The position numbers and the translations under genes are program-made. A DNA stretch of 51,962 nt from Clostridia bacterium (GTDB lineage: Bacteria > Bacillota > Clostridia > Oscillospirales > CAG-272): positions 1 through 51,962 of the forward strand of contig JAGCJI010000069.1 in the NCBI GenBank assembly GCA_017648085.1. Reading direction: 5' to 3'. Shown in pieces: positions 359 through 41,406 of the stretch. The notes under the pieces were generated by a model. It saw only the letters and a program-made list of their open reading frames with translations, did no database searches and had not been told where the DNA came from. The stretch's first letter is position 1. Every line of letters begins with the position of its first letter.

Positions 359-3277
359 TTATCTGAAAATAAAGTCACCGACGTTCTCGCCCGCCGTGCC
401 TATAACGTATTTTTTGTCGCCGTAGCAGAATTTTGTGTCGCCGAAGAAACCGCCGTAGTTTTCTACGTCATCATAGTGAGCGCCGTCACTTATTCCCTTG
501 CCCGACGTGTCGGCAACGACGAATTTATAGCCATTGGGATTGGACCGTATTTCAATAAATTCGGGAGGAAGAATAACGTTGAAATTCTCGCGGTCCGACT
601 TATTTTTGACAACACCGCCCTCGTTTGCACTGACGCGGTCCTTGTCGTATGCAATTCCGCTATCCGGAACAAGCACACCGTCCTTATACTCTCCCGTACC
701 GTCCACCACACCGTCGTAGTTCTTGTCAAGATAAGAGTATCTCGGTGGCGTTTTGGCAGTATATTCAAGATGCATCCGCACGTCGGTGAGTGCATTTGAA
801 AGCTGAAGCTCCGTGCTGCCGTATCTCTCATCATTTTCCGCATAGATTATCTCTATTCCGTCGATTATCAAATTCGGGAAGGCACATACGTATCCGAAAT
901 CCCAGTTGGTGTAAAATTGGGAAAGGATCACGAGCGGATTTTCCTTACCGTCGCGAGTATCGAAGGCTGCGTAGCATTTAACGTTTTGCAGTGTCACGGT
1001 TCCGTCCCAGGTTGAGCCGTAGTCCGATCGAAGCTTGACTATGGCATCGGGCGAGCCCGAGCCATCGGCGTAAACCACGGAATCCTTGATCAACATATCG
1101 CCTCCGCCGGTCAGCGACATCTCACCCACGTGAGAACCGATGACCGCACCGCCTACAAGACCGGCGTGAGAATCAAATCGGGACATAGTGGAATTGATAA
1201 ACTGCATATTTTTCGTATAGTTTGCTCCGCCAAGTCCCCAGAACACCGCCGTGTTTAAGGATTTGTACGCGATCGGGTTCATACTAAGCTGTGCGCCCGG
1301 CGTGCCCTCGGGAACGCCCGTAATTTCACCCGTGGCGTAATCTATAGTGATCCAGAAATTAGACTGATAGCATTCCTCGTAAAATATGTTACACGCCTCG
1401 TGTACCGAGTAGTCGTAAGTGCCTGGTGTTCCGCTACCTACGCCTTTATATTTACGGTAGCACCTTCTGCCCGTAAGAGTGCAGCGTAAAAATCTTACGT
1501 TGTTTGCGTAGTCGGCACAGAAAAAGCCGTTATACGCACTGCCAAGTATGCCAGCCTCCTGCTCGTTAAGTGAAATCTCATTTTTAACAATATGCTTAAC
1601 GTCAATAACGTTTACGTTTGAGCGCTGTACGTCGATTCCGCGGTGAATGTACCCGCCGTATACGCCTATCGCCACGCCGTTTTCGCGTATAACGTTGTCG
1701 GCCCTGCTGGCAAGGGTAGTGAATTCACCGCCCTTTATGGTGATAGGCTCTGAATCGATCTCGTATACGGCGATATTCGCGAGAAAGTTGTAGTCGAAGA
1801 ACACGGGAGTCGACGGATCAACGTTTCCGTCCTTATCAAGCACTATCATCTCGTGCATACCGTTTCCGTCAAAGGAACTGTATCCTACGCGGCGGTACAC
1901 CCTGTGAGTTCCGTTGAAGGGTCTTATCATAACCGGTCTGTCAACGCCGGTCAGCTTAATATTCGTAGTTCCGCGGCCGAGCCCCGCCGCAAGAATTCGA
2001 TTGAGCTCCTCTGTGGAATCGATCTGCCACTCCTCTTTATCCGGAAGGACGTAAAACAAGTGAAGTCTCGCCATATCAGTACCGTCAAAGGTCGAAATAT
2101 CGGTATCGTCTATTATGAATTTTGCGCCGGTCCAATCGGTATTGGTCTTTATCGTAATAAAGGTCGGCTTGCCAAACGCGTCACGGGTATCGTGAATACG
2201 GTAGACCTTGCCGGGCGTTGCCTTGACAGTTTGACCGCACTGATTTGCAAGCTCGTGCGCGCGGTAAATAGCCCAATAATCGTCGGTCATTCCATTGCCG
2301 GTAGCACCCATGTCGTCATAATATATAACGTCAACGTCGCGCTGATAAACTCTGCCGGTCAGTTGAACGACTCCGTTTTCCGCGGATATACCGGCAAGGA
2401 AAGTGTCCACCGCCGAAGCGAGCATATTATCGTATGCACATTCAATCGTGAGCTGCTCTTTGGAATTGACGTTTATCTCAAAGCCGCCCTGCACGCTGCC
2501 CTTCGGAACTTTATTTATGATTATGGATTTATCGGCATCGTCAAGCCCGACTATATCGGGATAAAAGCCCATTTTTACGTATAGGTAATCGCGTATAGCC
2601 TCTGCCGCCGCCATATACGTGGGGTTTTGCGTGTCGGTAGCAATGCTGTAGTCACGTATTGAGGACGAGCCGATCGTAAAGGATATGACGTCGTATTTCG
2701 TCTGGATCTTCACCTCATCCATCTTATCTGTAAAGACAAACTCGTCCATAATATCGCCGTCCGCATATGGAGCGGTGACGATAGAGGTGAATTTTTTGAT
2801 TGCCTCGGAAAGAGCATCGGTTGAGCCGGCGGAAATAACCACTTTTGATCCCATCATTTTGATAGCATACCCCTCAACACCTAGGGTATGCTCGTCGATA
2901 TCGTATTCAGCTCCGCGGTTTTGCACGTTGCCTATAAGTACCTCAATATTCTGGATCATTTTCTTGGCGTCTTCTTCGACGGTTTTAACCTCAACGCCAA
3001 GCTTTTTAAAGGCGAGGGTAGCCTTGTTAAGCTCGTAGGAAACTATAGAAGGCGCATCCTTTTCCAACACGAAATGGAAGTTAGCCTCGCCGTCTATGAC
3101 AAGAACCACCTCGTCCTCTGTCGACGGCGGCTTTTTTGCCATATCCTTATCGCATTTGTCGCACACGCCGTTGCCGTCGTTATCACTATGGATACAAGGC
3201 AGATTAAGGGTTAAGGAGCAGGAGGAAAGCATGATAACGGTTATTGCTACGAGTAGTGCTGCCAGAAATCTCTTCAT
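359..3277 (-). CDS. Surface lipoprotein with two N-terminal alpha/beta modules and a C-terminal ~650-aa right-handed beta-helix (pectate-lyase-superfamily / tailspike-like) module. Labelled paralog P1.
   Basis: 972-aa ORF. It has a signal peptide and lipobox (MKRFLAALLVAITVIMLSSC). Residues ~315-972 align by eye with the four upstream ~650-aa ORFs: GATGNGMTDDY, RRCYRK, WGLGGANYTKNMQFINSTMSRFDSHAGL, SDYGSTWDGT and the C-terminal GGFFGDTKF. The G-x-G(D/N)G-x-TDD start motif is typical of Pectate_lyase_3-type beta-helix proteins. The N-terminal EGYAIKM..KVVISAGS-type modules weakly resemble GH20/GH67 N-domains. Confidence 0.85.
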   Translation of the reverse strand: MKRFLAALLVAITVIMLSSCSLTLNLPCIHSDNDGNGVCDKCDKDMAKKPPSTEDEVVLVIDGEANFHFVLEKDAPSIVSYELNKATLAFKKLGVEVKTVEEDAKKMIQNIEVLIGNVQNRGAEYDIDEHTLGVEGYAIKMMGSKVVISAGSTDALSEAIKKFTSIVTAPYADGDIMDEFVFTDKMDEVKIQTKYDVISFTIGSSSIRDYSIATDTQNPTYMAAAEAIRDYLYVKMGFYPDIVGLDDADKSIIINKVPKGSVQGGFEINVNSKEQLTIECAYDNMLASAVDTFLAGISAENGVVQLTGRVYQRDVDVIYYDDMGATGNGMTDDYWAIYRAHELANQCGQTVKATPGKVYRIHDTRDAFGKPTFITIKTNTDWTGAKFIIDDTDISTFDGTDMARLHLFYVLPDKEEWQIDSTEELNRILAAGLGRGTTNIKLTGVDRPVMIRPFNGTHRVYRRVGYSSFDGNGMHEMIVLDKDGNVDPSTPVFFDYNFLANIAVYEIDSEPITIKGGEFTTLASRADNVIRENGVAIGVYGGYIHRGIDVQRSNVNVIDVKHIVKNEISLNEQEAGILGSAYNGFFCADYANNVRFLRCTLTGRRCYRKYKGVGSGTPGTYDYSVHEACNIFYEECYQSNFWITIDYATGEITGVPEGTPGAQLSMNPIAYKSLNTAVFWGLGGANYTKNMQFINSTMSRFDSHAGLVGGAVIGSHVGEMSLTGGGDMLIKDSVVYADGSGSPDAIVKLRSDYGSTWDGTVTLQNVKCYAAFDTRDGKENPLVILSQFYTNWDFGYVCAFPNLIIDGIEIIYAENDERYGSTELQLSNALTDVRMHLEYTAKTPPRYSYLDKNYDGVVDGTGEYKDGVLVPDSGIAYDKDRVSANEGGVVKNKSDRENFNVILPPEFIEIRSNPNGYKFVVADTSGKGISDGAHYDDVENYGGFFGDTKFCYGDKKYVIGTAGENVGDFIFR

Positions 3278-3337: not shown

Positions 3338-5281
3338 TCAAGTTTTCACAAATTCAAACGTCGCGGTGTCACTATGGTTCGTACCGAGATAGTATTCGTC
3401 AGCGCCATTACCAAAGTAGAATTTCGTGTCGCCGAAGAAGCCGCCAAGGCTATCGAGCTCATCGTAATATTTGCCGTCGCTTATACCGCTGCCCGACGTA
3501 TCGGGAACACGGAAAATATATTTATTCTCACTCTGCAATATCTTGATAAAGAGCGGCGGGCGCACGGGGTTTTCGTTCTTGTAGCTTGTGGGATGCATAA
3601 CACCGCTATTACTCGGAACTCCGTCGTAGGGAATATCTGTGCCGTCAACAAAACCGTCACCGTCAAGGTCGACCTTGGCATAAATGGGATGCGATGCGGT
3701 GGTGGTAGGCAAGTGGATCGCCGGCTCGTCCTTAAGCGTCGGGCGGGTAAGGTTTATATTATATCCGTCGGGCAGTGGCTCGCCGGTTTCCTGGTCGTAA
3801 TACGTAAGACCTTCAACCTCCACGTTCGGGAAGCAGGACTGATATCCGGGATACCAATTTATGTACCCGTGTCGAATTAAAAAGCTCGGGCGGTCGGTCA
3901 GAATATACGCCTTTACGTTTTTGACGGTTACCGTGCCGTCCCAGGGAGAGCCGTAATCCTCGCGCATTCCGAAAAGCGCGTCGCCGTACTTTATTCCCTC
4001 TCCGACCCAAGTCGAGTTTTCAATAATCATATGTCCGCCGCCGACGATTGAAATGGTGTTGTAGGTGGAGTCGATTACTTTGCCGTTATAAAGTCCGGCG
4101 TGCGCATCAAAGCGGGACATTGTGGAGCCGATAAACTCCATATTCTTGGTGTAATTTACACCGCCAAGACCCCAATACACCGCGAAATCTATGCCGCCAA
4201 AAGAGGTCTGGCGCAGGCTGTGAACGGCGCCGGGGGTGTCCTTGGTTGCCGGCTTTACCTCGCCGGTTTCCATATCTATAGTTATCCAGAAATTGGACTG
4301 ATGGCAATTTTTAAATACAAGCTTGTTGCAGTCGTCGCCTGTGTAATCGTAGGAGCCGCTGGTGCCGCTGCCTGCGCCGGGAACGTTGTTTTTGCGGAAG
4401 CATCTTTTGCCGGTAAGCACGCAGTCCTCAATAGTTACGCCGTGCGCGCCCGAAACCTCAAAAAATCCGTTATAGGTCGGGCCGAGTATGCCGGAGGCCT
4501 GCTCCGCAAGAGTTATTTCTCCCGTGACGTAATGCTTAACGTTTTTGACGGTAGTATGGGAGCGTGTGATTTTAAGTCCACGCTGAATAAAGCCGTTGCG
4601 CGCGCGAAGCACCTTGCCGCTCTCATCGCGTTCAAGTATATCTATATGGCTTGCGCGAGTGGTAAACGTTCCGTTCTGAACAGTCAGGGGGCGTACTCTC
4701 AAATCCACCACCTTGATGTAATCGATATAGTCGTAGTTGAAGAGCACGGGGGTTTCGGGATCAATATTTCCCTCTCCGTCAAGGACTATGACCTCGTGTG
4801 TAAGGCCGCCGAGATGCGAGCCGAAGCCGATTCGGCGGTAAACGCGGTTGGTCGAGGAATACGGAATGATCATGACCGGGTAGTCAACGCCCGGCAGGTT
4901 TATCCTTTTCGTATCCGGATTAAGTCCCGACTTTGCAAGGGAGTCAAGAAGCTCTCTGTCCTCTATGAGCGTCGGCTCGCTGTCAGGCAGAATATAGAAA
5001 ATATCCTTTTTTGTAACGCCGGTGCCGTCAAAATGTATGAAATTAGTGTCCTCAATTATAAAGCTTGCACCGCACCAATCAACGTCGGTTTTGATTTCGA
5101 CCGAATGGACGAGTCCCTCCCTGTCGCGCGTGTCACCTATAAGATAGGTATCCTCGGGATGTGCAACGACGGACAGACCGTTTGCGTTTGCGTATTCGTG
5201 CGTTGCCTTTATTGCAAAAAAATCATTCGTAATTCCGTCGCCGACCGCGCCGAAATCTCTGTAACTTACCGTTGTTTTCAT
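3338..5281 (-). CDS. Leaderless beta-helix (pectate-lyase-superfamily / tailspike-like) protein, paralog P2
   Basis: 647-aa ORF with a GGAGAT RBS 7 nt upstream. It starts MKTTVSYRDFGAVGDGITNDFF with no signal peptide. It shares YWGLGGVNYTKNMEFIGSTMSRFDAHAGL, EDYGSPWDGTVT, DLDGDGFVDGTD and GGFFGDTKFYFG with its paralogs. Confidence 0.9.
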   Translation of the reverse strand: MKTTVSYRDFGAVGDGITNDFFAIKATHEYANANGLSVVAHPEDTYLIGDTRDREGLVHSVEIKTDVDWCGASFIIEDTNFIHFDGTGVTKKDIFYILPDSEPTLIEDRELLDSLAKSGLNPDTKRINLPGVDYPVMIIPYSSTNRVYRRIGFGSHLGGLTHEVIVLDGEGNIDPETPVLFNYDYIDYIKVVDLRVRPLTVQNGTFTTRASHIDILERDESGKVLRARNGFIQRGLKITRSHTTVKNVKHYVTGEITLAEQASGILGPTYNGFFEVSGAHGVTIEDCVLTGKRCFRKNNVPGAGSGTSGSYDYTGDDCNKLVFKNCHQSNFWITIDMETGEVKPATKDTPGAVHSLRQTSFGGIDFAVYWGLGGVNYTKNMEFIGSTMSRFDAHAGLYNGKVIDSTYNTISIVGGGHMIIENSTWVGEGIKYGDALFGMREDYGSPWDGTVTVKNVKAYILTDRPSFLIRHGYINWYPGYQSCFPNVEVEGLTYYDQETGEPLPDGYNINLTRPTLKDEPAIHLPTTTASHPIYAKVDLDGDGFVDGTDIPYDGVPSNSGVMHPTSYKNENPVRPPLFIKILQSENKYIFRVPDTSGSGISDGKYYDELDSLGGFFGDTKFYFGNGADEYYLGTNHSDTATFEFVKT

Positions 5282-5401
5282 AGCTGAATCTCCTTTTTTT
5301 GCCCGCGAGGGCAGTTAATCTAAGTTATACAACTCAAAGTGCCGGTGCGCAAGCACCTTGTTTGCTTTTTACGTGTCCTTGTTTGAAAGATGTCCGCGGT
5401 G

Positions 5402-7342
5402 TCAGTTAAAGACGAAGGGACCGACCTCTCCGATTTCCGTGCCAACAACGTAATCTACGGCAGAATAGTAAAATTTAGTGTCGCCGAAGAAGCCGCCCGC
5501 ATTTTCAACGTCATCGTAATAGTCGCCGTCGCTTATTCCGGCACCTGCCGTAGAGGCAAGAGTAAAGCGGCATCCGCCGTCCTGAATTATCTTAATATAT
5601 TCCGGGGGGCGTACGGGATTTTCGTTTGTGTAGCTTGTCGGGTGCATAACTCCGCCGTTGCTTGGCACTCCGTCGTAAGGAATGTCGGTGCCGTCAATCA
5701 GCCCGTCGCCGTCAAAATCGACCTTTGCATAATAGGGGTGCGATGCCGTAGTGGTGGGCAAATGCATTGCCGGCTCAAAGCCCGACGAGAATCTGAAGAG
5801 TTTTATTTCGTAGCCGTCGGGTAAGGGTAGTCCGGTTTCCTGGTCGTAGTACGTAAGGTTTTCAACCACGACGTTAGGATATGCCACGGGGTATCCGAAG
5901 TACCAGTTAGTATAACCGCAACGAATCAGATAGCTCGGGCGGCTGGTGAAAATATACGCCTTCACGTTTCTGACCGTGACGGTTCCGTCCCAAGGCGAGC
6001 CGTAGTCCTCACGCATACCGAAAAGCGAGTCGCCCGATTTTATGCCCTCGCCCACCCACGTCGAGTTTTCAACGAGCATATTTCCGCCGCCGACGATGGA
6101 AATCGTGTTGTAGGTGGAGTCGATTATTTTTCCGTTATAAAGCCCCTGGTGCGCATCGAAGCGAGACATCGTAGAGCCTATAAACTCGAGATTTTTACAG
6201 TAGTTAACTCCGCCAAGACCCCAATACACCGCAAAATCTATACCGCCGTAGGTGGTTTGGCGCAAGCTGTGTATTGCACCGGGAGTGCCTTCCGGCACGG
6301 GAGTTATCTCTCCGGTTTCCATATCAAGAGTTATCCAAAAATTAGACTGATAACAGTTCTTGAAAACGATTTTGTTGGATTCGTCTGCGCGATAATCGTA
6401 AGTACCGCTTGTGCCGCTTCCCGCGCCGGGAACGTTGTTTTTGCGGTAACATCTTCTTCCCGTCAGAACACAATCAAGCATAGTGACACCGTGAGCGCGC
6501 TCAACCGCGAAAAATCCGCTGTAAGTAGGACCGAGCATACCGCGCGCCTGCTCCGCAAGCGTTATCTCGCCCGTCACGTAATGCTTTATTCCCTGCACGG
6601 TCGTGTTCGAGCGCATTATCTTAAGTCCGCGCGCAATATAGCCGTTACGGGCCCTGATGACCTTGCCCTCTCCGTCGCGCTCCAAAATATCAATATGGCT
6701 TGCGCGAGTGGTTATGTTAGCGTTTTTGACTGTTATGGCACGCTCGGCAAGGCTTATTACGGTAATATAGTCGAGGTGGTCATAATCGAACATAAGGGGC
6801 GTTTGCTGGTCAACGTTTCCATCCTTGTCTATAACCACTACCTCGCGTGTCACTCCGCCGAGGAAGTGCGAGGAAAAGCCGATGCGGCGGTAAACTCCGC
6901 CCCCCTTCGTGTTATAAGGAATTATCATAGCGGGATAATCAACCCCGGGGATTGCTATTCTTTCGGTTTTGGAATTCAATCCCTTGAGAACTATATCCGA
7001 AAGCACGCCCTCGTCCTCAATTTTGATAGGCTCTTTGTCGGGCAGGATTTTAAAAACGTTCTCCAAGGCGACACGGGTACCGTCGAAATGGATAAAATCA
7101 GTGTCGTCTATGATTATATTTGCGCCTTGCCAATCGACGTCGGTCTTTATTGATATAAAATTAAGAGAGCCGTCCTCGCTGCGCGTGTCGTGCACAAGAT
7201 AGGTGTCCTCGGAATCGGCTACGACGGAAAGTCCATACGCATTTGCATAGTCATGCGCCGCCTTCATTGCAAAGAAGTCGTTGGTGACTCCGTCACCCTT
7301 CGCACCAAAATCCCTATAGCTGACAGTTTTCCGTGTTTGCAT
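5402..7342 (-). CDS. Leaderless beta-helix protein, paralog P3
   Basis: The ORF is open from 7360, but a GGGAGA RBS sits 7 nt before the second ATG (7342). That start gives MQTRKTVSYRDFGAKGDGVTNDFF, collinear with P2. By eye it is high (roughly 70%) aa identity to P2 over the full length. Confidence 0.9.
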   Translation of the reverse strand: MQTRKTVSYRDFGAKGDGVTNDFFAMKAAHDYANAYGLSVVADSEDTYLVHDTRSEDGSLNFISIKTDVDWQGANIIIDDTDFIHFDGTRVALENVFKILPDKEPIKIEDEGVLSDIVLKGLNSKTERIAIPGVDYPAMIIPYNTKGGGVYRRIGFSSHFLGGVTREVVVIDKDGNVDQQTPLMFDYDHLDYITVISLAERAITVKNANITTRASHIDILERDGEGKVIRARNGYIARGLKIMRSNTTVQGIKHYVTGEITLAEQARGMLGPTYSGFFAVERAHGVTMLDCVLTGRRCYRKNNVPGAGSGTSGTYDYRADESNKIVFKNCYQSNFWITLDMETGEITPVPEGTPGAIHSLRQTTYGGIDFAVYWGLGGVNYCKNLEFIGSTMSRFDAHQGLYNGKIIDSTYNTISIVGGGNMLVENSTWVGEGIKSGDSLFGMREDYGSPWDGTVTVRNVKAYIFTSRPSYLIRCGYTNWYFGYPVAYPNVVVENLTYYDQETGLPLPDGYEIKLFRFSSGFEPAMHLPTTTASHPYYAKVDFDGDGLIDGTDIPYDGVPSNGGVMHPTSYTNENPVRPPEYIKIIQDGGCRFTLASTAGAGISDGDYYDDVENAGGFFGDTKFYYSAVDYVVGTEIGEVGPFVFN

Positions 7343-7371
7343 TATATAATCTCCCACCATGCTTTTACATC

Positions 7372-7400
7372 ACTATACCGCCCGACGCGGTAAAAGTCAA
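7372..7400 (-). promoter_or_regulatory. Sigma-70-type promoter for paralog P3
   Basis: The minus strand reads TTGACT, a 17-nt spacer, then TATAGT. It lies ~30 nt upstream of the P3 start, in the P4-P3 intergenic region. Confidence 0.55.
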
Positions 7401-7449
7401 TGCAGAACCCGACTTTATCCTTAAAACGCCAAATTTCAAGGATAATGTG

Positions 7450-9387
7450 TTATATAAATTTAAATATTTCGGTATCGGTATGGTCGGTGCCGAGGTAATA
7501 GTCATCCTCGCCATCGCCATAGTAAAATTTAGTTCCGCCGAAGAAACCGCCGAAATTATCCGCAGCGTTATAATATCCGCCGTCGCTGACTCCGCATCCC
7601 GCAGTTTTAGGAACGGCAAAAGCGAAGCCCGCACCGTTGCCGCATATCTTAACGTATTCGGGTGGCTTAACGGGGTTAAGATTCTCATTGCTGCCCTCGT
7701 AAATTATACCCGTGCTGTCGGGAATACCGTCGTACAGTATATCCGTTCCGTCAACGAAACCGTCGCCATCCGCGTCGATCTTTGCAAAAATCGGGTGGCT
7801 GTTCTTCGTTTCGGGAAGGTGAAGCGCAGGCTCAAGAAGCATAGACTCTCCGGTGAGATAAATGACGTGACCGCGCGGCAACGGCTCACCCGTTTTGAAA
7901 TCGTATACAGTGAGCGAGTCGACCTCTATATTCGGGAAGCAGGACTGATATCCGCAATACCAGTTGAGATATCCGTGACCCGCAAGACGGCAGGGCTTTT
8001 CGGGGTTAACGTAGGCCTTCACGTTCTTCAGTGTGATCCTTCCATCCCAAGGAGATCCGTAGTCGGAGCGCATACCAAGCAGCGTGTCGCCCTTGTTGTG
8101 ATCAAGTCCCATAAGAGTAGAATTTTCAATAACCATATCGCCACCGCCCACGAGTGATACCGTGTTTACGGTGGAATTGATAATTTTTCCGTTCATAAGT
8201 CCTGCGTGAGCGTCAAAGCGAGAAAGGGTTGAGTCTATGAACTGCATATTTTTGGTGTAATTTGCTCCGCCAAGTCCCCAATATATCTTGAAGTTGATAT
8301 TGCCGAACGCAGTTGCCGTCATGCTTAACTGTGCCCCGGGCGTGTCCGCGGTCGCAGGCTTTATCTCTCCGGTTTCCATATCTATCGTTATCCAGAAATT
8401 AGACTGGTGGCAGTTTTTAAATATTACGAGGTTGGAATCGTTAACGGTGTAATCGTACGAGCCGCTCGTTCCGCGTCCCGCCCCGGGAACGTTGTTTTTG
8501 CGAAAGCATCTTTTTGCGGTCAGAATGCAATCCTGAAATGTGACTGCATGTGCGCCCGTTGCTCCGAAAAATCCGTTATAGGTCGGTCCGAGCATACCCT
8601 TTGCCTGCTCTGCAAGAGTAACCTCCCCCGTCACGTAATGCTTTACGTTTTTTACGGTCGTAAAGGAACGCATAACTTCAATACCGCGCTGTATGTAGCC
8701 GTTGCGAGAACGGATCGCGTTTCCCTCCGCATCCCTCTCCACTATGTCAAAGTGGCTGGCGCGTGTGGTAAAGGTCGCGTTTTCGAGCGTAATATGCGGC
8801 TCGTCAAGGCGAGTAAGCTTTACCGAGTCGAGAGCCGAATATTTAAACAGAAAGTGCGTGTCGTCCGACACGTAGCCATCCTTATCCAGCACGACGACCT
8901 CGTGCGTTACACCGCCCACGTGTGAGCCGAAGCCACGGCGGCGGTAAACTCTGTTGGAGGAATCGTAGGGCGTCATCATAACCGGATAGTCAACGCCGGG
9001 GATAACTACCCTCTCTGTTGAACGGTCAAAGCCCGAGCCGAGAATCTCTGCAAGGACGTCCTCATCGTCAACCGTTACGGGCTCGGTGTCGGGCAAAACT
9101 ATAAACAGGTCCTGTGCCGTGACACCCGTGCCGTCGAAATGCATGAAATTCGTATCGTCAATTATAAAGCTTGCGCCACGCCAATCAACGTCGGTTTTAA
9201 CCTCTACGTAATGAACGTTGCCCTCCGCATCTCGCGTATCGGATATAAGATAGGTATCCTCGGGATGCGCGATAACCGAGCATCCGTTCTGATTGGCATA
9301 TTCGTGCGCCGCCTTTATTGCAAAAAAGTCGTTCGTGATGCCATCGCCAACCACACCGAAATCCCTATAGCTTACAGTTTTTTTCAT
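7450..9387 (-). CDS. Leaderless beta-helix protein, paralog P4
   Basis: The ORF-track start at 9402 is a GTG. The ATG at 9387 gives MKKTVSYRDFGVVGDGITNDFF, collinear with P2 and P3 (AAGGTG lies upstream). The same conserved motifs are present: YWGLGGANYTKNMQFIDSTLSRFDAHAGL, DADGDGFVDGTD and GGFFGGTKFYYG. Confidence 0.88.
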   Translation of the reverse strand: MKKTVSYRDFGVVGDGITNDFFAIKAAHEYANQNGCSVIAHPEDTYLISDTRDAEGNVHYVEVKTDVDWRGASFIIDDTNFMHFDGTGVTAQDLFIVLPDTEPVTVDDEDVLAEILGSGFDRSTERVVIPGVDYPVMMTPYDSSNRVYRRRGFGSHVGGVTHEVVVLDKDGYVSDDTHFLFKYSALDSVKLTRLDEPHITLENATFTTRASHFDIVERDAEGNAIRSRNGYIQRGIEVMRSFTTVKNVKHYVTGEVTLAEQAKGMLGPTYNGFFGATGAHAVTFQDCILTAKRCFRKNNVPGAGRGTSGSYDYTVNDSNLVIFKNCHQSNFWITIDMETGEIKPATADTPGAQLSMTATAFGNINFKIYWGLGGANYTKNMQFIDSTLSRFDAHAGLMNGKIINSTVNTVSLVGGGDMVIENSTLMGLDHNKGDTLLGMRSDYGSPWDGRITLKNVKAYVNPEKPCRLAGHGYLNWYCGYQSCFPNIEVDSLTVYDFKTGEPLPRGHVIYLTGESMLLEPALHLPETKNSHPIFAKIDADGDGFVDGTDILYDGIPDSTGIIYEGSNENLNPVKPPEYVKICGNGAGFAFAVPKTAGCGVSDGGYYNAADNFGGFFGGTKFYYGDGEDDYYLGTDHTDTEIFKFI

Positions 9388-9427
9388 AATCGAAAATTTC
9401 ACCTTTGTTCTTTATATGGTATACCAC

Positions 9428-9455
9428 ATTATATCACTCACGTTTTTTCACACAA
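9428..9455 (-). promoter_or_regulatory. Sigma-70-type promoter for paralog P4
   Basis: The minus strand reads TTGTGT, a 16-nt spacer, then TATAAT, in the P5-P4 intergenic region. Confidence 0.45.
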
Positions 9456-9519
9456 GCACTCCGTTTACTTTTATTGAGTCCTTATTTGTATCTATCTCGA
9501 CTCCTCGGCTTTTTCGAAA

Positions 9520-11484
9520 TTATTCCGAATCTGCGCTTTTAATATCGCACTCCCGGAACTTAAACGCGCAGGTGTCCTTATGACCCGTGCCGAGATAATA
9601 ATCATCCTCGCCGTTACCGTAATAGAATTTCGTGTCGCCGAAGAAGCCACCGTCAGGCGTGAGTGCCGAGGTATCCCATACAACAACGTCAAAGTTGCAG
9701 TTTGCAAATCTTACCTTCTTCGGAGGAGTGATTCTGTTGATGTTTTTTCTGGAATCCGGAATACATACGCCCGCGGTTTCCACCACGTCGTCGTAATGAA
9801 CGTTCGTTCCGTCAACGAATCCGTCGCCATCGTAGTCAACGTCGCAGTAGTAGGGGGGAGAATACAGGGTATTTTCGAGGTGAATTCCGGGCTCGCTGAC
9901 CATCACGGACGTAGTGAGAGGCACTTCATGTCCGGGGTTTATAAGCTCACGGGTGTTCATATCGTAAAGCGTCATACCGTCAACGTCGATATCAGGGAAA
10001 GAAATACGGTATCCGTAGTCCCAGTTCGCATATCCGATTGACATGAATTTTGAGGGAGCATATTCGCGGTATGCGGGGGCGTTCGGAGAGGTTGACTTAT
10101 CTGTATATACGTACGCCTTGAAGTTTTTAAAGGTAATTCTGCCGTTCCATACCGAGCCGTAATCTCCGCGCAAGCCGAATATATTGTTCTGCTTATAATG
10201 GTTTTCGCTGTAAACGGTGGTGTTTTCAATATGCATATCTCCTCCGCCCGTAAGTGCAATAGCCACGAGCGTAGAGTCTATGATCTTACCGTTATAAAGT
10301 CCGTTGTGCGCGTCAAAACGAGAGAGCGTGCAACCGATATATTCCATGTTCTTACAAAGGTTAGAGCCACCGATGCCCCAGAACATTCTCGCCGATTTAC
10401 CCTCGTCGTTACATATGGGTGAAAGCGAAAGAACCGCATCGGGATCGGTGGGATTCGCGTCAACGATAACGCCATCCCTTATAGCGACCCAGAAGTTGTG
10501 CTGGGTACAGTTCTTAAACACGAGCTTGTTGACCTCCCAGCCCGAAAGGTCGTACGTGCCGGTAGCACCTCCGCGACCAACGGGTGACCAGGTCTTGTGG
10601 TAGCATCTTCTTGCCGACATCACGCAATCCTCAAAGGTAACGTAGCTTGCCTGCTTTGCGGAGAAGAAGCCGTGATATGCTGCGCCAACCTCACCCGCCT
10701 TCTGACGTGCGTAGGATATTTCGCCCTCAACGTAATGCTCCACGCCGCGCACGGTGGTATGGGAGCGCTTTACGTAAAGGTTACGCTCGAAGTAGTGTTG
10801 CTTTGCGGCGGTAGCTCTGCCGTTTTCATCAAACACCACACAGTTTATATCGCTTGCGATAGTGGTAAAGCGGCCACCCTCGATAAGCAGGGGCTCGTCG
10901 TCAAAGCGGTAAACCTCGATAAAATCAAGTCCGGGATATTCAAACATAAGCGGAGTTTCCTCGCTGATATTTCCCTCACCGTCAATAACCATAATCTCAC
11001 GCATCGCCGTGCCCTCGTGCTTATTGTAGCCGCGGCGGCGGTATATCTTATGGTTGTTGTTATATGGAACGATAAGCGCGGAGTATCCGAGCTTAAGATC
11101 TATCTTTCTGGTTTCCGGACCGAAGCCCTTTGCGATTATGCCCGAAAGCAATTCGGGATCGGTTACCTTACTTGGCTCGTAATAGGACTGAACACTGAAA
11201 ATACTTACTCCGTAAACCTCACCGTCGGTATGAACCGAAAGCTGCGAGTCATCTATAACGAAGCTTGCACCGCGCCAATCGGTGTTGGTTTTTATAACCG
11301 CGGGGCGTACCGCGCCGTTAACGTGCGTGTCGCTTATGTAATATGTTTTGCCCGCTTCGGCTTTGACGGGGAGATGGTTTTCATTAGCGTAATCGTGCGT
11401 CGCACAGATTGCCGCAAAGTCGTTGGTTTTTCCGTCGCCAACCGCTCCAAACTGCTCGTAGGTTACAAATTTAGTGTTTTTCAT
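9520..11484 (-). CDS. Leaderless beta-helix protein, paralog P5 (the most diverged of the leaderless set)
   Basis: 654-aa ORF starting MKNTKFVTYEQFGAVGDGKTNDF with no signal peptide. A GGAG RBS is present. It keeps FWGIGGSNLCKNMEYIGCTLSRFDAHNGL, GDYGSVWNGRIT, DYDGDGFVDGTN and GGFFGDTKFYYG. Confidence 0.9.
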   Translation of the reverse strand: MKNTKFVTYEQFGAVGDGKTNDFAAICATHDYANENHLPVKAEAGKTYYISDTHVNGAVRPAVIKTNTDWRGASFVIDDSQLSVHTDGEVYGVSIFSVQSYYEPSKVTDPELLSGIIAKGFGPETRKIDLKLGYSALIVPYNNNHKIYRRRGYNKHEGTAMREIMVIDGEGNISEETPLMFEYPGLDFIEVYRFDDEPLLIEGGRFTTIASDINCVVFDENGRATAAKQHYFERNLYVKRSHTTVRGVEHYVEGEISYARQKAGEVGAAYHGFFSAKQASYVTFEDCVMSARRCYHKTWSPVGRGGATGTYDLSGWEVNKLVFKNCTQHNFWVAIRDGVIVDANPTDPDAVLSLSPICNDEGKSARMFWGIGGSNLCKNMEYIGCTLSRFDAHNGLYNGKIIDSTLVAIALTGGGDMHIENTTVYSENHYKQNNIFGLRGDYGSVWNGRITFKNFKAYVYTDKSTSPNAPAYREYAPSKFMSIGYANWDYGYRISFPDIDVDGMTLYDMNTRELINPGHEVPLTTSVMVSEPGIHLENTLYSPPYYCDVDYDGDGFVDGTNVHYDDVVETAGVCIPDSRKNINRITPPKKVRFANCNFDVVVWDTSALTPDGGFFGDTKFYYGNGEDDYYLGTGHKDTCAFKFRECDIKSADSE

Positions 11485-11563: not shown

Positions 11564-11600
11564 TAAAAAAATGCACGAGCGCGGATATGCGCTCGTGCAT
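11564..11600 (-). terminator. Rho-independent terminator of the infB operon
   Basis: On the minus strand, ATGCACGAGCGC-ATATCC-GCGCTCGTGCAT forms a 12-bp perfect stem followed by TTTTTTT. It lies ~60 nt after the infB stop. Confidence 0.8.
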
Positions 11601-23226: not shown

Positions 23227-23586
23227 GTGATGAAGAAAAAAACCAAATACAAAAGCGATATGCCGAGGCTTCTATACAGCTTTTTTATCTCACACAGCGA
23301 GGGCGGTGCGCCGAGCTTTCAGAAGTTTGCGCGGAGCATCGGAATTACTCTTGCGGAGCTTGAGGGGTACAGAACGCGAAAGGAATTTGACAGAGCGTGG
23401 CGGGAATGCAACGAAATCAGAAGGGATTACCTCATAGACGCAGCGCTGACACGCCGCCACGACCCGTCGTTCGTTAAATTTCTGCTCTCAAGCGAATACG
23501 GAATGGGCGAAAAGGATAAAGAGCCCACCGATACCGCACTTACGGTTTCCCTTGACGTGTTGACGGACGGAAAGCATGAAGCTTAA
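23227..23586 (+). CDS. terS: Phage terminase small subunit (HTH-type)
   Basis: 119 aa directly upstream of, and overlapping, terL. The pattern SF.KFARSIGITLAELEGY....EF..AW.EC.EIR.DYL.DAAL......SF.KFLL matches the common terS HTH layout. A GGAGGAGG RBS is present. The start is either the GTG at 23227 or the ATG at 23230. Confidence 0.7.
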   Translation: MMKKKTKYKSDMPRLLYSFFISHSEGGAPSFQKFARSIGITLAELEGYRTRKEFDRAWRECNEIRRDYLIDAALTRRHDPSFVKFLLSSEYGMGEKDKEPTDTALTVSLDVLTDGKHEA

Positions 23587-27454: not shown

Positions 27455-27468
27455 GAAAGGAAAAAGAT

Positions 27469-28067: not shown

Positions 28068-28087
28068 GAAAGGAAAAACAATAACTA

Positions 28088-28504: not shown

Positions 28505-28525
28505 TAATTTGAAAGGAAGGAAATC

Positions 28526-29581: not shown

Positions 29582-29637
29582 TTTTAAAAAAGAGTGCGCC
29601 GCGTGCGGCGCACTCGTATCAACAAAGGGGGTAACGT

Positions 29638-30474: not shown

Positions 30475-30476
30475 CT

Positions 30477-36162: not shown

Positions 36163-39100
36163 ATGAAAAAAGTAACGAAAATTTTGTTGCTTCTGCTCGT
36201 TGCTACCTTGATTTGCGCCGGTGCCGGACTTTATGCGTTCTCGGCAACCGCAAATTCAAGCATTACGGGCAAGGCGGCTGATTCCTCCTATGCCTTCAAG
36301 GTCTTTAAGCCTTCCACGGCAAACGGAACGACTGGATCGACGAACAAGTACACGGCAAACAGCCTATCAACGCTGAAAAACGCACTTAATAGCGGTATCG
36401 ACGGTACGGTAATTACGCTTTTAAGTGACGTTACGATAACCACCGATAAGGATGCGGCGTTAAACGTTTCAGGCGTAAAATACATAGACCTTAACGGTTA
36501 TTCCATAACCTTTATTGCCAAGCCGAGCGTACAGTCTGCAACGGGCTACGGATTTATGCTTAACCCGAATTCCACTCTCTACGTATATTCATCCGATGCG
36601 AGCTACACGGCTCAAATCAGAACCTACGTTGACGGAACTGTCTACGTGGCAAACGGAAGCACGCCCATGGACGACTATAAAAACCACGTAATGCCCATAT
36701 TTAATATGCGCTACGATAACAGCACTCTGTATTTCGGAACAATCGACAATGCGCCTGTGTCAAATTCTGCAGGTACTGCCGTGTCCAGACGCGCAGTAAG
36801 CGGCGACAATATCGTTACGTATGCTAACGCTCTTTTTTCCTCCCTTAAGGCGTCTTACAAGGCTAACCCCGTAGGCTCGAAGGCTTACATACGCGGAGGT
36901 ACGCACTACCAGACCGCGATAGGACACGAGCGTGTGGGCGGCGACGGCAGCAGCTTTATTACCTCATATACGGGAGTAGACATCATCCTTGAGGATGCTA
37001 CGTTTATATCGACTGTATCCAGCGGACTTATTTCCACGTGCGTAAGACTTGCCACCTCGACCGTGGATAACACGACTAACTACATTGCTCCCGCGGACGG
37101 AAATATCACCGCAAACCGTTGCAAATTTTACTCCGAGGGAACGATTATAGCACAGGCGTACGAGAGCGTACACACCGATAACACGTATCCCGGCGGCATC
37201 AAGCTCTCCTCTATTGAATTTAACAACTGTTATTTTGCAGGAACAGCTCTCAGTAACGACGCAAGCAACGGCTCTCCCGATTTCAACAACTGTTATTTTG
37301 CTTCGGCGGCAACGATCCCCGGCTCTTCCAACAAGACGGTATCCACCAACAAATCCTACACCTTTAACGTACCGACTGCAACATACACCTATGCTGCGGA
37401 CGGATCGGTCACGTTTTCCCTCTCCGCTGCAAAATCCGTGCCCGCGAATTTCTTCGTAAAGACAGCCACAGAGGGCAACTATGCAACGATAACCTGGAAC
37501 GGCTACGGAAAAACGGAGGTAACATATTGGGATAACGACAGATCGGTAGTCCCCACCCCCGCATTTGTTCCCGAATCCTCAGGTCTTTATAAGTATCAGT
37601 ACACCACGACCATCAAAGCGGTTACGGGTGATGCGACTTATAATCTTGAGCCTACCATAAACTTTCCGTTTATGACCAACCTCACGCTGTACGCGCACTT
37701 CGTATACAACGTATATATCCCCAAGGATATTGCCGATTCCCCTGAATTCATATCGGTTTTCCTTGACGGCAAAGCACAGGAGCTTAAAAATGTCGTTACC
37801 GTTTCGGGCGAAAAGTACTATGTGCTCTCACACGAGCTTCCCGCAAGCGTAGCGGATCAGAGCTTCGATCTCACTATGCGTATTGAGGGATATGAGGAAA
37901 CCTTTGACTATACGAAGGCTCTGTCGATCCCCGACTACGTATCTGCAGTAACGAACGGCAACTATTCGGCGGAGGCAAAGGCACTTGTAAGCTCCGCTGA
38001 CACTTATATAAAAGCGGCGCGCAATTACTATACCGACTCCTCGCTTTACGCGGTCCCCGAGCTTGAGAAAATAGTGGGTAAGCCCGCGTCGCAGATTCCC
38101 GCAGCCCTTTCCGATACTCTTTACGGAGTAACGCTGGAGCTTGGCGGAACTATAAAATTCAGACTCTTTATCTATAAAAATGCCCCTGATTTCACTTTCA
38201 GCTATCAGATCAACAACGTCCGCAAGGAATTTAGCTCAAGCGAAGTCACTATGACTGAAATTCCCGATTCTGACCTCTGCTACTTTGATATATCGGTTTC
38301 CGCGTTTGACCTGCGCGATACTGTAAGAATAATTTCAAGCGACGGAACGGTATACTACTACTCACTTGCAAACTATATCTACTCCGTACAAGGCGAATCC
38401 TCGCACCTTACGACTCTTATGGACGCTATTTGGGAATACTCCGTCTGCAGTGAAGAGTACGCAAGCGTATTTAACTCTCAGTCACCCACCATACAGGTTA
38501 CCATCTCCGGTTCGGAAATCGATGCTATCGTAGCAACCAACGCGGCGGAAATGAAGGCGGCAGAGATAATTCAGAACGCTCTTGCAGAGGTCACGGGTAT
38601 TACAGTACCGATCACAAGCACGGCAACCTCCGGTGCTAACGTAATAGTAACCGTCACCGCTCCGGTTGCGGCATACGACGCAAAGGCGTACGTAAAGAGT
38701 GGCGACCTGTACATAGAATGCGGATATGCATCCTTTACCTACAGTGCGGCAAGTCAGTTTGTAAACAACTACATAATTCGACTCGGCTCGTCCTACAACT
38801 TTGCCACCAGATTTACCACAAGCTTCTACACGGATGAGATCTACTACTCCGACTTCGGTGCGGTAGGCGACGGCGTTACCGACGACTTCTTCGCTATGAA
38901 GGCGGCGCACGATATGGCAAACGCAACAAAGCGTCACACGGTACGCGCCGACAGCGGAAAAACCTATCTTATAGAGGACACCCGCGATCCTTCCGGCAAG
39001 GTGCATCAAATCTCCATCACCTCAAACGTTAATTGGGGTAATGCAAACATCATAATTAAGGACACAAACTTCTCCGCCTTTGACGGAACCGGCGTAACCG

Positions 39101-41406
39101 GACGGAATATTTTCGTGGTTGCACCCGATAAGTCGGCAATCAAGATCAACGATCAAGAAACGATCGCAAGGATCCTCGCCGCCGGACTTGGTCCCGACAC
39201 CACCAAGATCGATCTCGGCATCGGCAAGAGCGCAATGCTCATCCCTTACAATACCTCTCACAAGGTATACCGTCGTATAGGCTACGGCAAGTACGAAGGT
39301 CACGATATGCACGAAATAATCCTGATTGACGAGGAAGGTAACGTCAGCTCCGAAACACCCGTAGTCTTTAACTACTCCTCTCTTGATTACATTCTGGTTT
39401 ACGACATCGACGAAACACCCATTACCGTAGAAGGCGGTATTATAACCACCCTCGCATCGCACGTTGATATCGTTCAAAGAGATGAAAACGGGAACGTGAT
39501 CGGCGCATATAACTCGTTCATCAATCGCGGACTCAAGGTCATGCGCTCAAACACCACCGTAAAGAACGTACAGCACTATGTAGAGGGCGAGATAACCCTT
39601 GCAGAGCAGGAGGAGGGAATCCTCGGTGCTCCGTATCACGGATTCTTCTGCACCGAATCCGTACATAACGTAACCTTTGATTCATGCGTTCTTACCGGTA
39701 GAAGATGCTACAGTAAATCATACCTGCCCGGTGCCGGCAGCGGCGCAACGGGAAGCTACGATTACACCGTAGACGCCTCCAATAAAGTAATCTTTAAAAA
39801 CTGCACACAGTCTAACTTCTGGATCAAGCCAATCTATGATAGCAACAGACAGATAATTGACGTAGTACCGGCGCAGGAGGGCGAAGAGGGCGCACGGCTC
39901 AGCATGACCAGAATGCAGTATAAGCCCGGCAGCCATATCAACTTCAAAAGATATTGGGGTCTTGGCGGCTCTAACCACTCAAAAAATATGTCGTTTATAG
40001 ACTCGCGCATGTCCCGATTTGACTCTCACTCCGGACTTTATAACGCGTACATTATCAACTCCGACGTTAACGGCATCTCTCTCACCGGTGGCGGCGAAAT
40101 GATTATTGAAAACTCCAGATGGTTTGCAAACGCCGACGGCGGAGCTGACTCCTTCGTGGATTTGAGAGGCGACTACGGTTCAACGTGGAACGGTACTCTT
40201 ACGCTGAAGGATTCCACGGCTTACGTCGTTCCGAATTACAGCTTTTCGATCATCGGAACTTCGTACAGCAACTGGGATTTCGGATACACGGGATGTTTCC
40301 CGAACCTCGTTATAGACAATATTACCATCCTTGACATTAACGGCAACTCGATTATTGACTCAAACGGAAATCCCCTCTCTAAGTACGTATCCTCAACCTC
40401 TGCCGGAAACAATATATTCGACATGAACGGTAAAATAAGGCTTATCGCGGCAGAAAGCGGACAAAACGTACTTGACCGCGAACCGAACGTTCACCTTTCC
40501 GAAACGCAGAACACCGCTCCCATATTCGCATACGTTGACGAGGACGGTGACGGATACGTTGACGACATCTTCGAGGTTTGCGGAATAAAGGTTCCCTACG
40601 ATAAAAAGATAGGCTTTGTTCCCGATGAAACACTTTATCCCAACGTTCAGCTTGCGGCAGACAACACCGGACTTCAGGTAACTACCTCAAATTACAACCT
40701 GAACCCGATAACTCCCCCTGAAAGCATCGTAATTAAAAACGATAAGTACAGCTACTACATTCCGTTTACCAAAAACGGAGCAAGCAGCACTTTCTTCGAT
40801 AACACCTACGTTTCTATAAACGGAACGACGGTAAACGGCACCACCCCCGAATCCCCCAAGGTCCCCGAATACGTAGCACCCGACGCGGCTGACGGTCTCG
40901 TATATAACGGCAGTGCTCAACAGCTCCTCTCACCCGGCACAGCAAATGGAGGAACCATGATGTCCAAGATTGCCGGAGGTATCTATTCGACCGAAAGACC
41001 AACCGCAACTAACGCCGGAACATACGTCGTGTTCTACAAGATCGTAGGCGACGACGGATATACGGACGTTGATGAAGCAAGTATTACGGTCATTATAGAA
41101 AAGGCAATTCCCACGGTTACACCTCCCACAGTTAAAACCGACCTTATGTACAATGCATCTATGCAGGAGCTTGTTATCCCCGGCGTTGCGGAGGGATGCA
41201 CCGTTCTTTACAGAATCGGAAACAGCGGAGAATTCTCTAATAATATCCCCACCGCTACCGAGGTAGGCACGTACGTCGTTTACTATAAGATAGTAGGTGG
41301 CACTAACTACCACGACGCCGAGGGCGGAAGCATAACCGTAACTATAAGCGTTATTCCCGAAGAATACTTCGAACCCACAGAAACCCCCGTGGTTTCCGCA
41401 AAATAA
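36163..41406 (+). CDS. Giant secreted multidomain protein. It has an N-terminal beta-helix-like region, beta-sandwich modules, one copy of the ~650-aa array-type beta-helix module and two C-terminal Ig/MBG-like repeats.
   Basis: 1747 aa with a Sec signal peptide (MKKVTKILLLLLVATLICAGAGLYAFSATA). Residues ~890-1555 (nt ~38830..40830) are collinear with P1-P5: YYSDFGAVGDGVTDDFFAMKAAHDMAN, RRCYSK, YWGLGGSNHSKNMSFIDSRMSRFDSHSGL, GDYGSTWNGT, DEDGDGYVDD. The last ~165 aa hold two ~85-aa repeats (L.YN(G/A)S.Q.L..PG.A.G......I......PTAT..GTYVV.YKIVG...Y.D.....ITV.I). There is no LPXTG or other recognisable anchor. Confidence 0.9.
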   Translation: MKKVTKILLLLLVATLICAGAGLYAFSATANSSITGKAADSSYAFKVFKPSTANGTTGSTNKYTANSLSTLKNALNSGIDGTVITLLSDVTITTDKDAALNVSGVKYIDLNGYSITFIAKPSVQSATGYGFMLNPNSTLYVYSSDASYTAQIRTYVDGTVYVANGSTPMDDYKNHVMPIFNMRYDNSTLYFGTIDNAPVSNSAGTAVSRRAVSGDNIVTYANALFSSLKASYKANPVGSKAYIRGGTHYQTAIGHERVGGDGSSFITSYTGVDIILEDATFISTVSSGLISTCVRLATSTVDNTTNYIAPADGNITANRCKFYSEGTIIAQAYESVHTDNTYPGGIKLSSIEFNNCYFAGTALSNDASNGSPDFNNCYFASAATIPGSSNKTVSTNKSYTFNVPTATYTYAADGSVTFSLSAAKSVPANFFVKTATEGNYATITWNGYGKTEVTYWDNDRSVVPTPAFVPESSGLYKYQYTTTIKAVTGDATYNLEPTINFPFMTNLTLYAHFVYNVYIPKDIADSPEFISVFLDGKAQELKNVVTVSGEKYYVLSHELPASVADQSFDLTMRIEGYEETFDYTKALSIPDYVSAVTNGNYSAEAKALVSSADTYIKAARNYYTDSSLYAVPELEKIVGKPASQIPAALSDTLYGVTLELGGTIKFRLFIYKNAPDFTFSYQINNVRKEFSSSEVTMTEIPDSDLCYFDISVSAFDLRDTVRIISSDGTVYYYSLANYIYSVQGESSHLTTLMDAIWEYSVCSEEYASVFNSQSPTIQVTISGSEIDAIVATNAAEMKAAEIIQNALAEVTGITVPITSTATSGANVIVTVTAPVAAYDAKAYVKSGDLYIECGYASFTYSAASQFVNNYIIRLGSSYNFATRFTTSFYTDEIYYSDFGAVGDGVTDDFFAMKAAHDMANATKRHTVRADSGKTYLIEDTRDPSGKVHQISITSNVNWGNANIIIKDTNFSAFDGTGVTGRNIFVVAPDKSAIKINDQETIARILAAGLGPDTTKIDLGIGKSAMLIPYNTSHKVYRRIGYGKYEGHDMHEIILIDEEGNVSSETPVVFNYSSLDYILVYDIDETPITVEGGIITTLASHVDIVQRDENGNVIGAYNSFINRGLKVMRSNTTVKNVQHYVEGEITLAEQEEGILGAPYHGFFCTESVHNVTFDSCVLTGRRCYSKSYLPGAGSGATGSYDYTVDASNKVIFKNCTQSNFWIKPIYDSNRQIIDVVPAQEGEEGARLSMTRMQYKPGSHINFKRYWGLGGSNHSKNMSFIDSRMSRFDSHSGLYNAYIINSDVNGISLTGGGEMIIENSRWFANADGGADSFVDLRGDYGSTWNGTLTLKDSTAYVVPNYSFSIIGTSYSNWDFGYTGCFPNLVIDNITILDINGNSIIDSNGNPLSKYVSSTSAGNNIFDMNGKIRLIAAESGQNVLDREPNVHLSETQNTAPIFAYVDEDGDGYVDDIFEVCGIKVPYDKKIGFVPDETLYPNVQLAADNTGLQVTTSNYNLNPITPPESIVIKNDKYSYYIPFTKNGASSTFFDNTYVSINGTTVNGTTPESPKVPEYVAPDAADGLVYNGSAQQLLSPGTANGGTMMSKIAGGIYSTERPTATNAGTYVVFYKIVGDDGYTDVDEASITVIIEKAIPTVTPPTVKTDLMYNASMQELVIPGVAEGCTVLYRIGNSGEFSNNIPTATEVGTYVVYYKIVGGTNYHDAEGGSITVTISVIPEEYFEPTETPVVSAK

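Follow-up and report, generated by a model that had tools for sequence, protein, structure and literature searches.

Right-handed beta-helix proteins that act on glycans are known from phages and from bacterial chromosomes. K64-ORF41 of Klebsiella phage SH-KP152410 (PDB 8X8M), whose kin include the K1 lyase NTUH-K2044-K1-1 ORF34 and Acinetobacter phage AP22 gp54, is a beta-elimination lyase with the catalytic residues Tyr528, His574 and Arg628 (PMC11652154). WceF of Pantoea stewartii (PMC7949094) is a bacterial, chromosomally encoded, tailspike-like beta-helix protein that modifies exopolysaccharide. Here, a tandem array of five related genes (P5 to P1) was analysed in a stretch of 51,962 nucleotides (nt) from a Clostridia bacterium (GenBank assembly GCA_017648085.1, contig JAGCJI010000069.1), which as a whole is referred to as the window. 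P2–P5 are best explained, on sequence grounds, as intact, independently expressed, leaderless members of a family of glycan-cleaving beta-helix enzymes, and the lack of a leader, a family-wide trait, is kept in many relatives from gut bacteria. The positions of all array features are collected in table 1.

K64-ORF41 and P2–P5 share the right-handed beta-helix, and its His574 and Arg628 coincide with an invariant His and Arg of the family, at ~11% identity; proteins of the K64-ORF41 type differ from P2–P5 in being virion-borne trimers, in their N-terminal anchor of ~270 amino acids (aa) and in the C-terminal domain. The tail fibres of SPO1-like Bacillus phages (CampHawk gp97, 1025 aa) and of Anoxybacillus phage A403 are 21–24% identical over 70–81% of P2, but in CampHawk gp97, which is encoded in a structural module, 127 aa precede the start motif and ~520 aa follow the matched part. 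P2–P5 resemble WceF in their predicted fold and putative action on glycans; WceF carries a twin-arginine translocation (Tat) signal, forms a trimer and is encoded within an exopolysaccharide biosynthesis cluster, whereas P2–P5 have neither a signal nor such a cluster.

The AlphaFold2 model of P2, built with 61 homologs, was a right-handed beta-helix with a predicted local distance difference test (pLDDT) score of 92.9 and a predicted template-modelling (pTM) score of 0.92. Foldseek placed phage tail fibres and tailspike lyases first, followed by GH110 and GH28 proteins; the CampHawk tail fibre was the best overall structural match (template-modelling score 0.63 over 605 columns), the K64 depolymerase 8X8M was the top PDB match (E = 4e-12), and the LKA1 and phi297 tailspikes were also found. 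PHROG tail-fibre families 16586 and 23059 matched at E = 4e-13 and 9e-11, and the family profile retrieved K64-ORF41 by sequence (E = 3e-7) in the region WG.GG...R.D.H...R.D(Y/F)G. The family can thus be assigned with confidence to the predicted right-handed beta-helices, and the relationship to tailspikes and depolymerases proposed in an earlier reading of the sequence alone (the first-pass annotation) was borne out, the nearest structural and sequence relatives being phage tail fibres and tailspike depolymerases.

P2 residues H394 and R440 aligned with H594 and R648 of the 8X8M chain, which correspond to His574 and Arg628 if the 20 extra residues of the chain (1037 versus 1017 aa in the native protein) are all N-terminal. 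H394 and R440, together with D392, D442 and R240, did not vary in any of the 229 members (144 leaderless, 85 leader-bearing), and Y311 was invariant save for one Phe in a leader-bearing member. The Tyr528 position lies just upstream of the aligned stretch and faces a variable loop; allowing for a loop of ~30 residues, Y311 is a candidate counterpart. Because the candidate catalytic residues are invariant, all copies look catalytically competent, with one common chemistry, which by its likeness to the K1 and K64 phage tailspikes is most probably that of a polysaccharide lyase. The link to K64 suggests that the family may be a new polysaccharide-lyase-like family, and makes this hypothesis directly testable.

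Downstream of the putative catalytic motifs, a DxDGDGxVDGT loop is near-invariant and fits the EF-hand/dockerin loop consensus; its lone Pfam trace was EF-hand_6 in P4 (E = 0.068). A dockerin has two tandem calcium-binding F-hand repeats, each with a helix behind it; P2–P5 each have a single loop and gave no dockerin match at E <= 0.1. Named enzyme families were likewise not assigned: Pfam PF12708 (Pect-lyase_RHGA_epim) scored 13–14.5 bits against a cut-off of 27 and covered the first 30–50 residues only, the NCBIfam rhamnogalacturonidase models scored 12.7 bits against a cut-off of 500, and the generic N-terminal motif FGAxGDGxTDD was the sole weak scorer in both collections.

An exhaustive profile search for the family returned 902 cluster representatives (50% identity) at E <= 1e-30 and 2319 at E <= 1e-3. 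Neither Pfam nor NCBIfam had a model that matched above threshold, and every source name seen was 'hypothetical protein'. All named sources were metagenome-assembled genomes (MAGs) of uncultured Clostridia that live in the guts of ruminants, deer, rabbits and humans, labelled mainly Eubacteriales, Clostridia and Oscillospiraceae, with some Acutalibacteraceae and Christensenellaceae. Among 241 non-redundant relatives, 144 were leaderless and 85 leader-bearing, and since the same start position recurs in 144 of the 241, the leaderless start is not a matter of chance. Leaderless members open with M-x(2-8) followed by (Y/F)VTYE(E/Q)FGA. Exported members are multimodular, with either ~300 aa of N-terminal region behind a lipobox and a Cys/Asp-rich motif or far longer N-termini, so that the N-terminal regions of the surface forms span 300–1300 aa overall; the leaderless forms are minimal, the bare forms consisting of the beta-helix alone, with the C-terminal subdomain present or absent. 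In a neighbour-joining tree, the leader state was mostly kept within clades, with at least 17 switches. Close pairs of leader-bearing and leaderless genes recurred in six MAGs, and a single MAG held more than 15 family copies over six contigs. The family is a large, unnamed cellular variant of the tailspike-type beta-helix lyase fold, in exported and leaderless forms, and ranks among the most expanded families in these uncultured Clostridia of herbivore and human guts. Its invariant candidate catalytic residues are the same at the cell surface and, apparently, inside the cell.

Two sequence features of the family were recorded separately. In exported members the motif C-x-H-x-D-x-(D/N)-x-D-G-x-C-D-x-C-x-E follows the lipobox directly (P1 residues ~20–45, window positions 3150–3220) and resembles thrombospondin-type-3 or calcium-binding motifs. 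In a leaderless sub-clade of ~710 aa (L068, L069 and L137), an insert of ~45 aa carries a second loop, DxDGDGK(I/V)GNTS, and the two tandem loops look like a dockerin pair without the dockerin helices.

Leader and membrane-segment calls for the window proteins were based on hydropathy and inspection. In-frame stop codons lie 2–11 codons upstream of every P2–P5 open reading frame (ORF), which rules out a hidden leader supplied by an upstream extension, and no sign of an extension joined by frameshifting was seen for these four genes. The highest 19-residue Kyte-Doolittle mean within P2–P5 was 1.14, well short of a membrane segment, compared with 2.42 for the P1 leader and 2.46 for that of the 1747-aa protein. 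When a charged region, a hydrophobic region and a cleavage site or lipobox were looked for, all were found in P1 (N-terminus MKRFLAALLVAITVIMLSSC, lipobox LSSC) and in the 1747-aa protein (MKKVTKILLLLLVATLICAGAGLYAFSA, a Sec-type leader), and P2–P5 had no such arrangement. The leaderless state of the four proteins and the export signals of their paralogs, both proposed in the first-pass annotation, were therefore upheld.

P3 and P4 most likely start at internal ATG codons, 7342 and 9387 respectively, since these have Shine-Dalgarno sequences and match the gene calls for P0002 (compared with P3) and P0003 (compared with P4), in which the same internal starts are used. P3 then begins MQTRK, preceded by GGTGGGAG. 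As had been noted, the alternative starts at 7360 and 9402 add merely MVGDYI and VKFSI. A good ribosome-binding site (RBS) had been ascribed to each of the four genes; this holds for P2, P3 and P5 (GGAG-type, 8–9 nt upstream), and the site of P4 is the weakest (GGTGA, ~11 nt upstream of ATG 9387). P1 starts 60 nt downstream of P2 and is probably co-transcribed with it, as no promoter-like or terminator-like site lies in the gap. An RNA leader or riboswitch was considered and dropped, as Rfam gave nothing at gathering score over the window.

Table 1. Positions of the array genes, their signals and motifs, and related features in the window.
Feature	Position	Strand	Remarks
infB	11662-14559	minus	order on the minus strand: infB, P5, P4, P3, P2, P1
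Intrinsic terminator after infB	11571-11600	minus	strong
Promoter-like site for P5	11515-11543	minus	comes after the infB terminator
P5	9520..11484	minus	654 aa, leaderless beta-helix protein; start ATG 11484
Sigma-A-like promoter site for P4	9428-9455	minus	TTGTGT...TGATATAAT; similar to the P3 site
P4	7450..9387	minus	645 aa from ATG 9387 (MKKTV); ORF opens at GTG 9402; leaderless
Sigma-A-type promoter-like site for P3	7372..7400	minus	TTGACT-17-TATAGT
P3	5402..7342	minus	646 aa from ATG 7342; ORF opens at ATG 7360; leaderless
P2	3338..5281	minus	647 aa, start ATG 5281; leaderless; beta-helix by AlphaFold2
P1	359..3277	minus	972-aa lipoprotein paralog: lipobox, Cys/Asp-rich motif, ~300-aa N-terminal region, beta-helix, tail
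Intrinsic terminator after P1	324..352	minus	strong; marks the array end
RFDAH motif of P2, putative catalytic H394	4100..4114	minus	equivalents: P3 6149-6163, P4 8206-8220, P5 10306-10320, P1 1166-1180
R-x-DYGS motif of P2, putative catalytic R440	3947..3964	minus	equivalents: P3 5996-6013, P4 8053-8070, P5 10153-10170, P1 1013-1030
DxDGDGxVDGT calcium-loop-like motif of P2	3638..3670	minus	equivalents: P3 5687-5719, P4 7744-7776, P5 9805-9837
C-terminal tail of P2, PP motif to end	3341..3559	minus	equivalents: P3 5405-5608, P4 7453-7665, P5 9523-9726, P1 362-568
1747-aa paralog	36163..41406	plus	Sec-type leader; beta-helix core at residues 893-1563
Podovirus-like head and short-tail cluster	23227-35864		TerS, TerL, SU10/P22-type portal, 243-, 153- and 138-aa proteins, capsid, 278-, 905-, 127- and 131-aa proteins, three membrane proteins

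The genes of the array occupy a site between infB and ogg that was found in many species, downstream of infB and upstream of ogg/DUF6062/AAA_23. One leaderless copy was counted at this site in L002, three each in L001 and L139, five each in L136 and L137, at least five in L141 and at least 11 in L138; L140 had at least eight family copies on a contig whose flanks were out of view. The closest relatives of P5 were the infB-adjacent genes of L002 and L059 (57–58% identity), and P5 is orthologous to the lone gene that other species retain just behind infB. P2–P4 are 58–70% identical as proteins, with synonymous divergence (dS) above 1.7 and ratios of nonsynonymous to synonymous divergence (dN/dS) of 0.12–0.18, which are approximate given dS; the three are, as judged from these values, old in situ duplicates under purifying selection. 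DNA identity between copies was 60–85% with no long identical tracts, and P1 was ~45% identical at the protein level. With 1 to at least 11 copies, the site amounts to a natural experiment in the diversification of specificity. The intergenic region itself appeared as a hotspot of tandem amplification, its flanks being conserved wherever both were seen.

The gene context is cellular and non-viral. A Pfam scan of 148 neighbour proteins from ~68 loci gave housekeeping families, the commonest being RNase_T, type III glutamine synthetase, thiamine transporter and OGG, and no phage or sugar-transport family was among the commonest. A role in anti-phage defence was dropped, as PADLOC gave no match for P1, P2, P5 or the 278- and 905-aa proteins of the nearby cluster. 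Leaderless beta-helix proteins of this class had been called typically virion-borne, a description that found no support here. P2–P5 have 2–5 residues ahead of the first beta-helix strand and no N-terminal particle-binding domain, compared with anchors before the start motif of ~127 aa in CampHawk and ~270 aa in K64-ORF41. No full-length member was found in IMG/VR, where the matches were limited to the first 30–106 residues, and 20 of 50,697 phage genomes matched at 21–32% identity (~23% for the long matches). The array was found neither in a phage or prophage structural module nor in a viral genome, its place being the conserved housekeeping site between infB and ogg.

A C-terminal tail shared by all array members had been proposed as a docking, assembly or export determinant. 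The pattern was indeed recovered in P1–P5; P5, which reads PPKKVRF, has an 11-residue deletion of the middle part and not the degenerate version described. In the 1747-aa protein the first half of the tail alone was recognizable (PPESIVIK...), at an internal position followed by ~185 residues. Special conservation was not seen: mean pairwise identity in the window was 0.49 for the tail and 0.51 for the rest, and among P2–P4 the tail (0.51–0.55) fell below the body (0.59–0.72), which is the opposite of what is expected for a shared docking module. When 132 complete members were examined, the tail was full in 23, partial in 19 and missing in 22 leaderless proteins (22 of 64 without tail), and full in 14, partial in 6 and missing in 41 leader-bearing proteins. 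The tail is not a leaderless-specific or targeting signal, because proteins with a leader can have it as well as those with none, and a good many of the leaderless ones are without it; the proposed docking or export function thus lost its support, the lipoprotein P1 having a tail and the tail evolving, among the window paralogs, no more slowly than the body.

A hidden Markov model (HMM) of the tail, run against the ORFs of 73 loci, found family members only, plus one 63-aa fragment adjoining a family gene, and the idea of a mobile module was rejected; 67 of 80 matches lay at the very C-terminus. The isolated C-terminal 150 aa were modelled (pLDDT 86) as mostly loops with five short strands, and a PDB fold search with this model gave no match at E < 3. 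In our reading, the tail would be the end of a family-specific C-terminal subdomain that also holds the DxDGDGxVDGT loop.

As to where the leaderless enzymes work, P2–P5 are most likely cytoplasmic paralogs of surface enzymes, a reading that we hold with about even confidence. We infer the cytoplasmic location, a division of labour between surface and bare forms, and the substrate as follows: the surface paralogs (P1 and the 1747-aa protein) would cut polymer outside the cell, the bare paralogs would stay in the cytoplasm and cleave imported oligosaccharides, and tandem duplication between infB and ogg would have diversified the specificity of the bare paralogs. A carbohydrate-active enzyme of Firmicutes that lacks a leader is most commonly explained by work in the cytoplasm, a point that the first-pass annotation left out, and exported multimodular forms beside leaderless minimal ones are usual in Gram-positive glycan utilization. 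The close pairs of leader-bearing and leaderless genes in six MAGs, and P2 and P1 with 60 nt between them, point the same way. In polysaccharide lyase family 2 (PL2), YePL2A is a periplasmic endo-acting and YePL2B a cytoplasmic exo-acting enzyme. The leaderless exopolygalacturonase 3JUR of Thermotoga maritima, a beta-helix GH28 protein which we take to be cytoplasmic, was among the fold matches. The PL2 pair and GH28 3JUR show the same split within a family, into exported polymer-cutting and leaderless oligosaccharide-cutting forms, that is proposed for P1 and P2–P5; they belong to different families, however, and sit in sugar-utilization loci with transporters, as the array does not. Within the family, a candidate cytoplasmic glycan-trimming locus was found in L085 (3500–20412), where leaderless members alternate with other proteins that have no leader, namely GH36-like (melibiase/arabinopyranosidase-like), DUF4838 and GH106-like rhamnosidase proteins, and with an unassigned protein of 931 aa; an AraC regulator stands next to the array of L088.

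Several observations weigh against a cytoplasmic role. The members in L085 and L088 are just 30–32% identical to P2 and fall outside the clade of the window. No sugar ATP-binding cassette (ABC) transporter, binding protein or regulator was found next to the arrays between infB and ogg, BPD_transp_1 occurring twice among the 148 neighbours, and the closest characterized relatives act on polymers outside cells. The arrays evolve faster than their neighbours (P5 orthologs 57% identical, compared with 90% for NusA and 75% for ClpB), and such fast divergence, with up to 11 paralogs, is more typical of environment-facing proteins. A calcium-type DxDGDG loop is also more usual in extracellular proteins. 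The Cys content of the core barely differed between leaderless (1.80%) and leader-bearing (1.48%) members; with so small a difference, and exported members also being Cys-rich, exclusion of Cys was uninformative as a test of localization.

The podovirus-like cluster that follows the array in the window bears on the other explanations. Its 243-, 153- and 138-aa proteins are scaffold candidates, the 278-aa protein gave a weak SU10-adaptor match, and the 905-aa protein is nozzle-like with BspA-type leucine-rich repeats; no integrase or fibre gene was recognized in the cluster. Gene order and chromosomal position, beside a mutS-like gene, were the same in L067, L082, L133 and L134. Capsids were ~72% identical between species in which ClpB was 75% identical, and the best 120 of more than 1696 capsid relatives were all 348–355 aa long. 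Because order, position, capsid identity and capsid length are conserved, the cluster looks like a vertically inherited, domesticated podovirus-like element, resembling a gene transfer agent (GTA). The podovirus-like FpGTA of Faecalibacterium prausnitzii has its fibre, receptor-binding protein and lysis genes away from head operon I (PMC12946183). The FpGTA head operon (~10.5 kb) is comparable in size and content to the window cluster (~10.8 kb), which lies 12 kb from the array; FpGTA operon II differs from the array in being a single 5.5-kb operon that includes lysis genes, and no beta-helix depolymerase is mentioned in PMC12946183.

Two further observations concern genes in or beside the cluster. 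Over its first 64 residues, the 127-aa protein (33196–33579) matched the N-terminus of a fibre-like protein of 815 aa at 34% identity (E = 5e-10); the gene of the latter (9376–11823 of L132, a distant IMG/VR relative) comes after a nozzle-like gene. By this resemblance, the 127-aa protein may be the remaining stub of a fibre anchor within the domesticated cluster; no similarity between it and the CampHawk fibre anchor was found. The 1747-aa paralog comes after the GTA-like cluster in the window, in L067, in L082 (two copies) and in L133, and not in L134. Its gene has its own consensus promoter-like site (36089–36118) and a GC-rich hairpin with a short T-run ~250 nt upstream of the start, and therefore probably lies outside the cluster operon.

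The polymer-acting phage lyases among the closest relatives, the conserved calcium-type loop, the fast evolution and variable copy number of the arrays, and the absence of a linked transporter among the 148 neighbours would also suit enzymes that act outside the cell after release without a signal, either by lysis of a subpopulation (for example, coupled to production of GTA-like particles) or by a holin-like route, and that serve as shared depolymerases on plant or bacterial polysaccharides. GTA particles depend on lysis for their release, a holin and an endolysin are encoded by FpGTA (PMC12946183), and the conserved GTA-like cluster with its three membrane proteins is close by. We nevertheless regard release as rather unlikely: no lysis or holin gene adjoins the arrays, the array promoters are ordinary sigma-A-like sites whose upstream regions have no 9-mer in common with the region upstream of the cluster, and the exported paralogs already serve outside, so that a wasteful second route is not required. 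Should the leaderless forms not be cytoplasmic, they would indicate that gut Firmicutes have a route of release that needs no signal, or else an accessory system of a GTA.

An accessory role of this kind would take the form of depolymerase spikes encoded in trans and assembled in the cytoplasm onto the podovirus-like (GTA-like) particle of 23227–33992, the array being a repertoire of specificities that could give a GTA access to recipients whose surface glycans differ. In fold and catalytic residues P2–P5 agree with tailspikes, and the cluster is conserved by vertical descent at one site across several species, with an SU10-type portal, an adaptor, the nozzle-like 905-aa protein and possibly an anchor stub in the 127-aa protein, which resembles a fibre N-terminus, but with no fibre or spike gene recognized; in the FpGTA of Faecalibacterium, a second operon at another place in the genome encodes the fibre and the receptor-binding protein (PMC12946183). 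We consider this improbable. P2–P5 have 2–5 residues where the phage relatives have 127–270 aa of anchor, and the tail, the sole docking candidate, is kept by the exported lipoprotein P1, absent in a third of the leaderless members and no better conserved than the body. The array genes have their own sigma-A-like promoters with no motif in common with the cluster, L134 carries the cluster without the giant paralog, no full-length member came from viral contigs, and the more than 15 copies of one MAG are far beyond known spike sets. The tandem arrangement beside a leader-bearing copy could in principle reflect silent cassettes or copies in decay, whose use, if any, would be as donors for recombination into P1, but this is scarcely credible: each gene has its own start and RBS, P3–P5 have promoter-like sites, the approximate dN/dS of 0.12–0.18 and the intact candidate catalytic residues indicate constraint, no long identical DNA tracts were found, which also tells against gene conversion, and the leaderless form is the commoner in the sampled family. 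Cytoplasmic paralogs of surface enzymes thus remain the preferred reading of P2–P5.

Two minor observations were made around the cluster. Among 50,697 phage records, the portal matched two, MT836833.1 (L142, 10.8 kb) and MT837280.1, both unannotated 'Bacteriophage sp.' scaffolds with a related portal from human faecal viromes; MT836833.1, which was examined over its full length, was colinear with the window cluster, with identities of 39% for TerL, 32% for the portal, 26% for the capsid and 25% for the nozzle-like protein. Elsewhere in the window, positions 17081–19948 encode a highly charged 955-aa protein with a predicted coiled-coil and a C-terminal membrane segment, which was syntenic in relatives and 38–54% identical where its neighbours were 74–91% identical.

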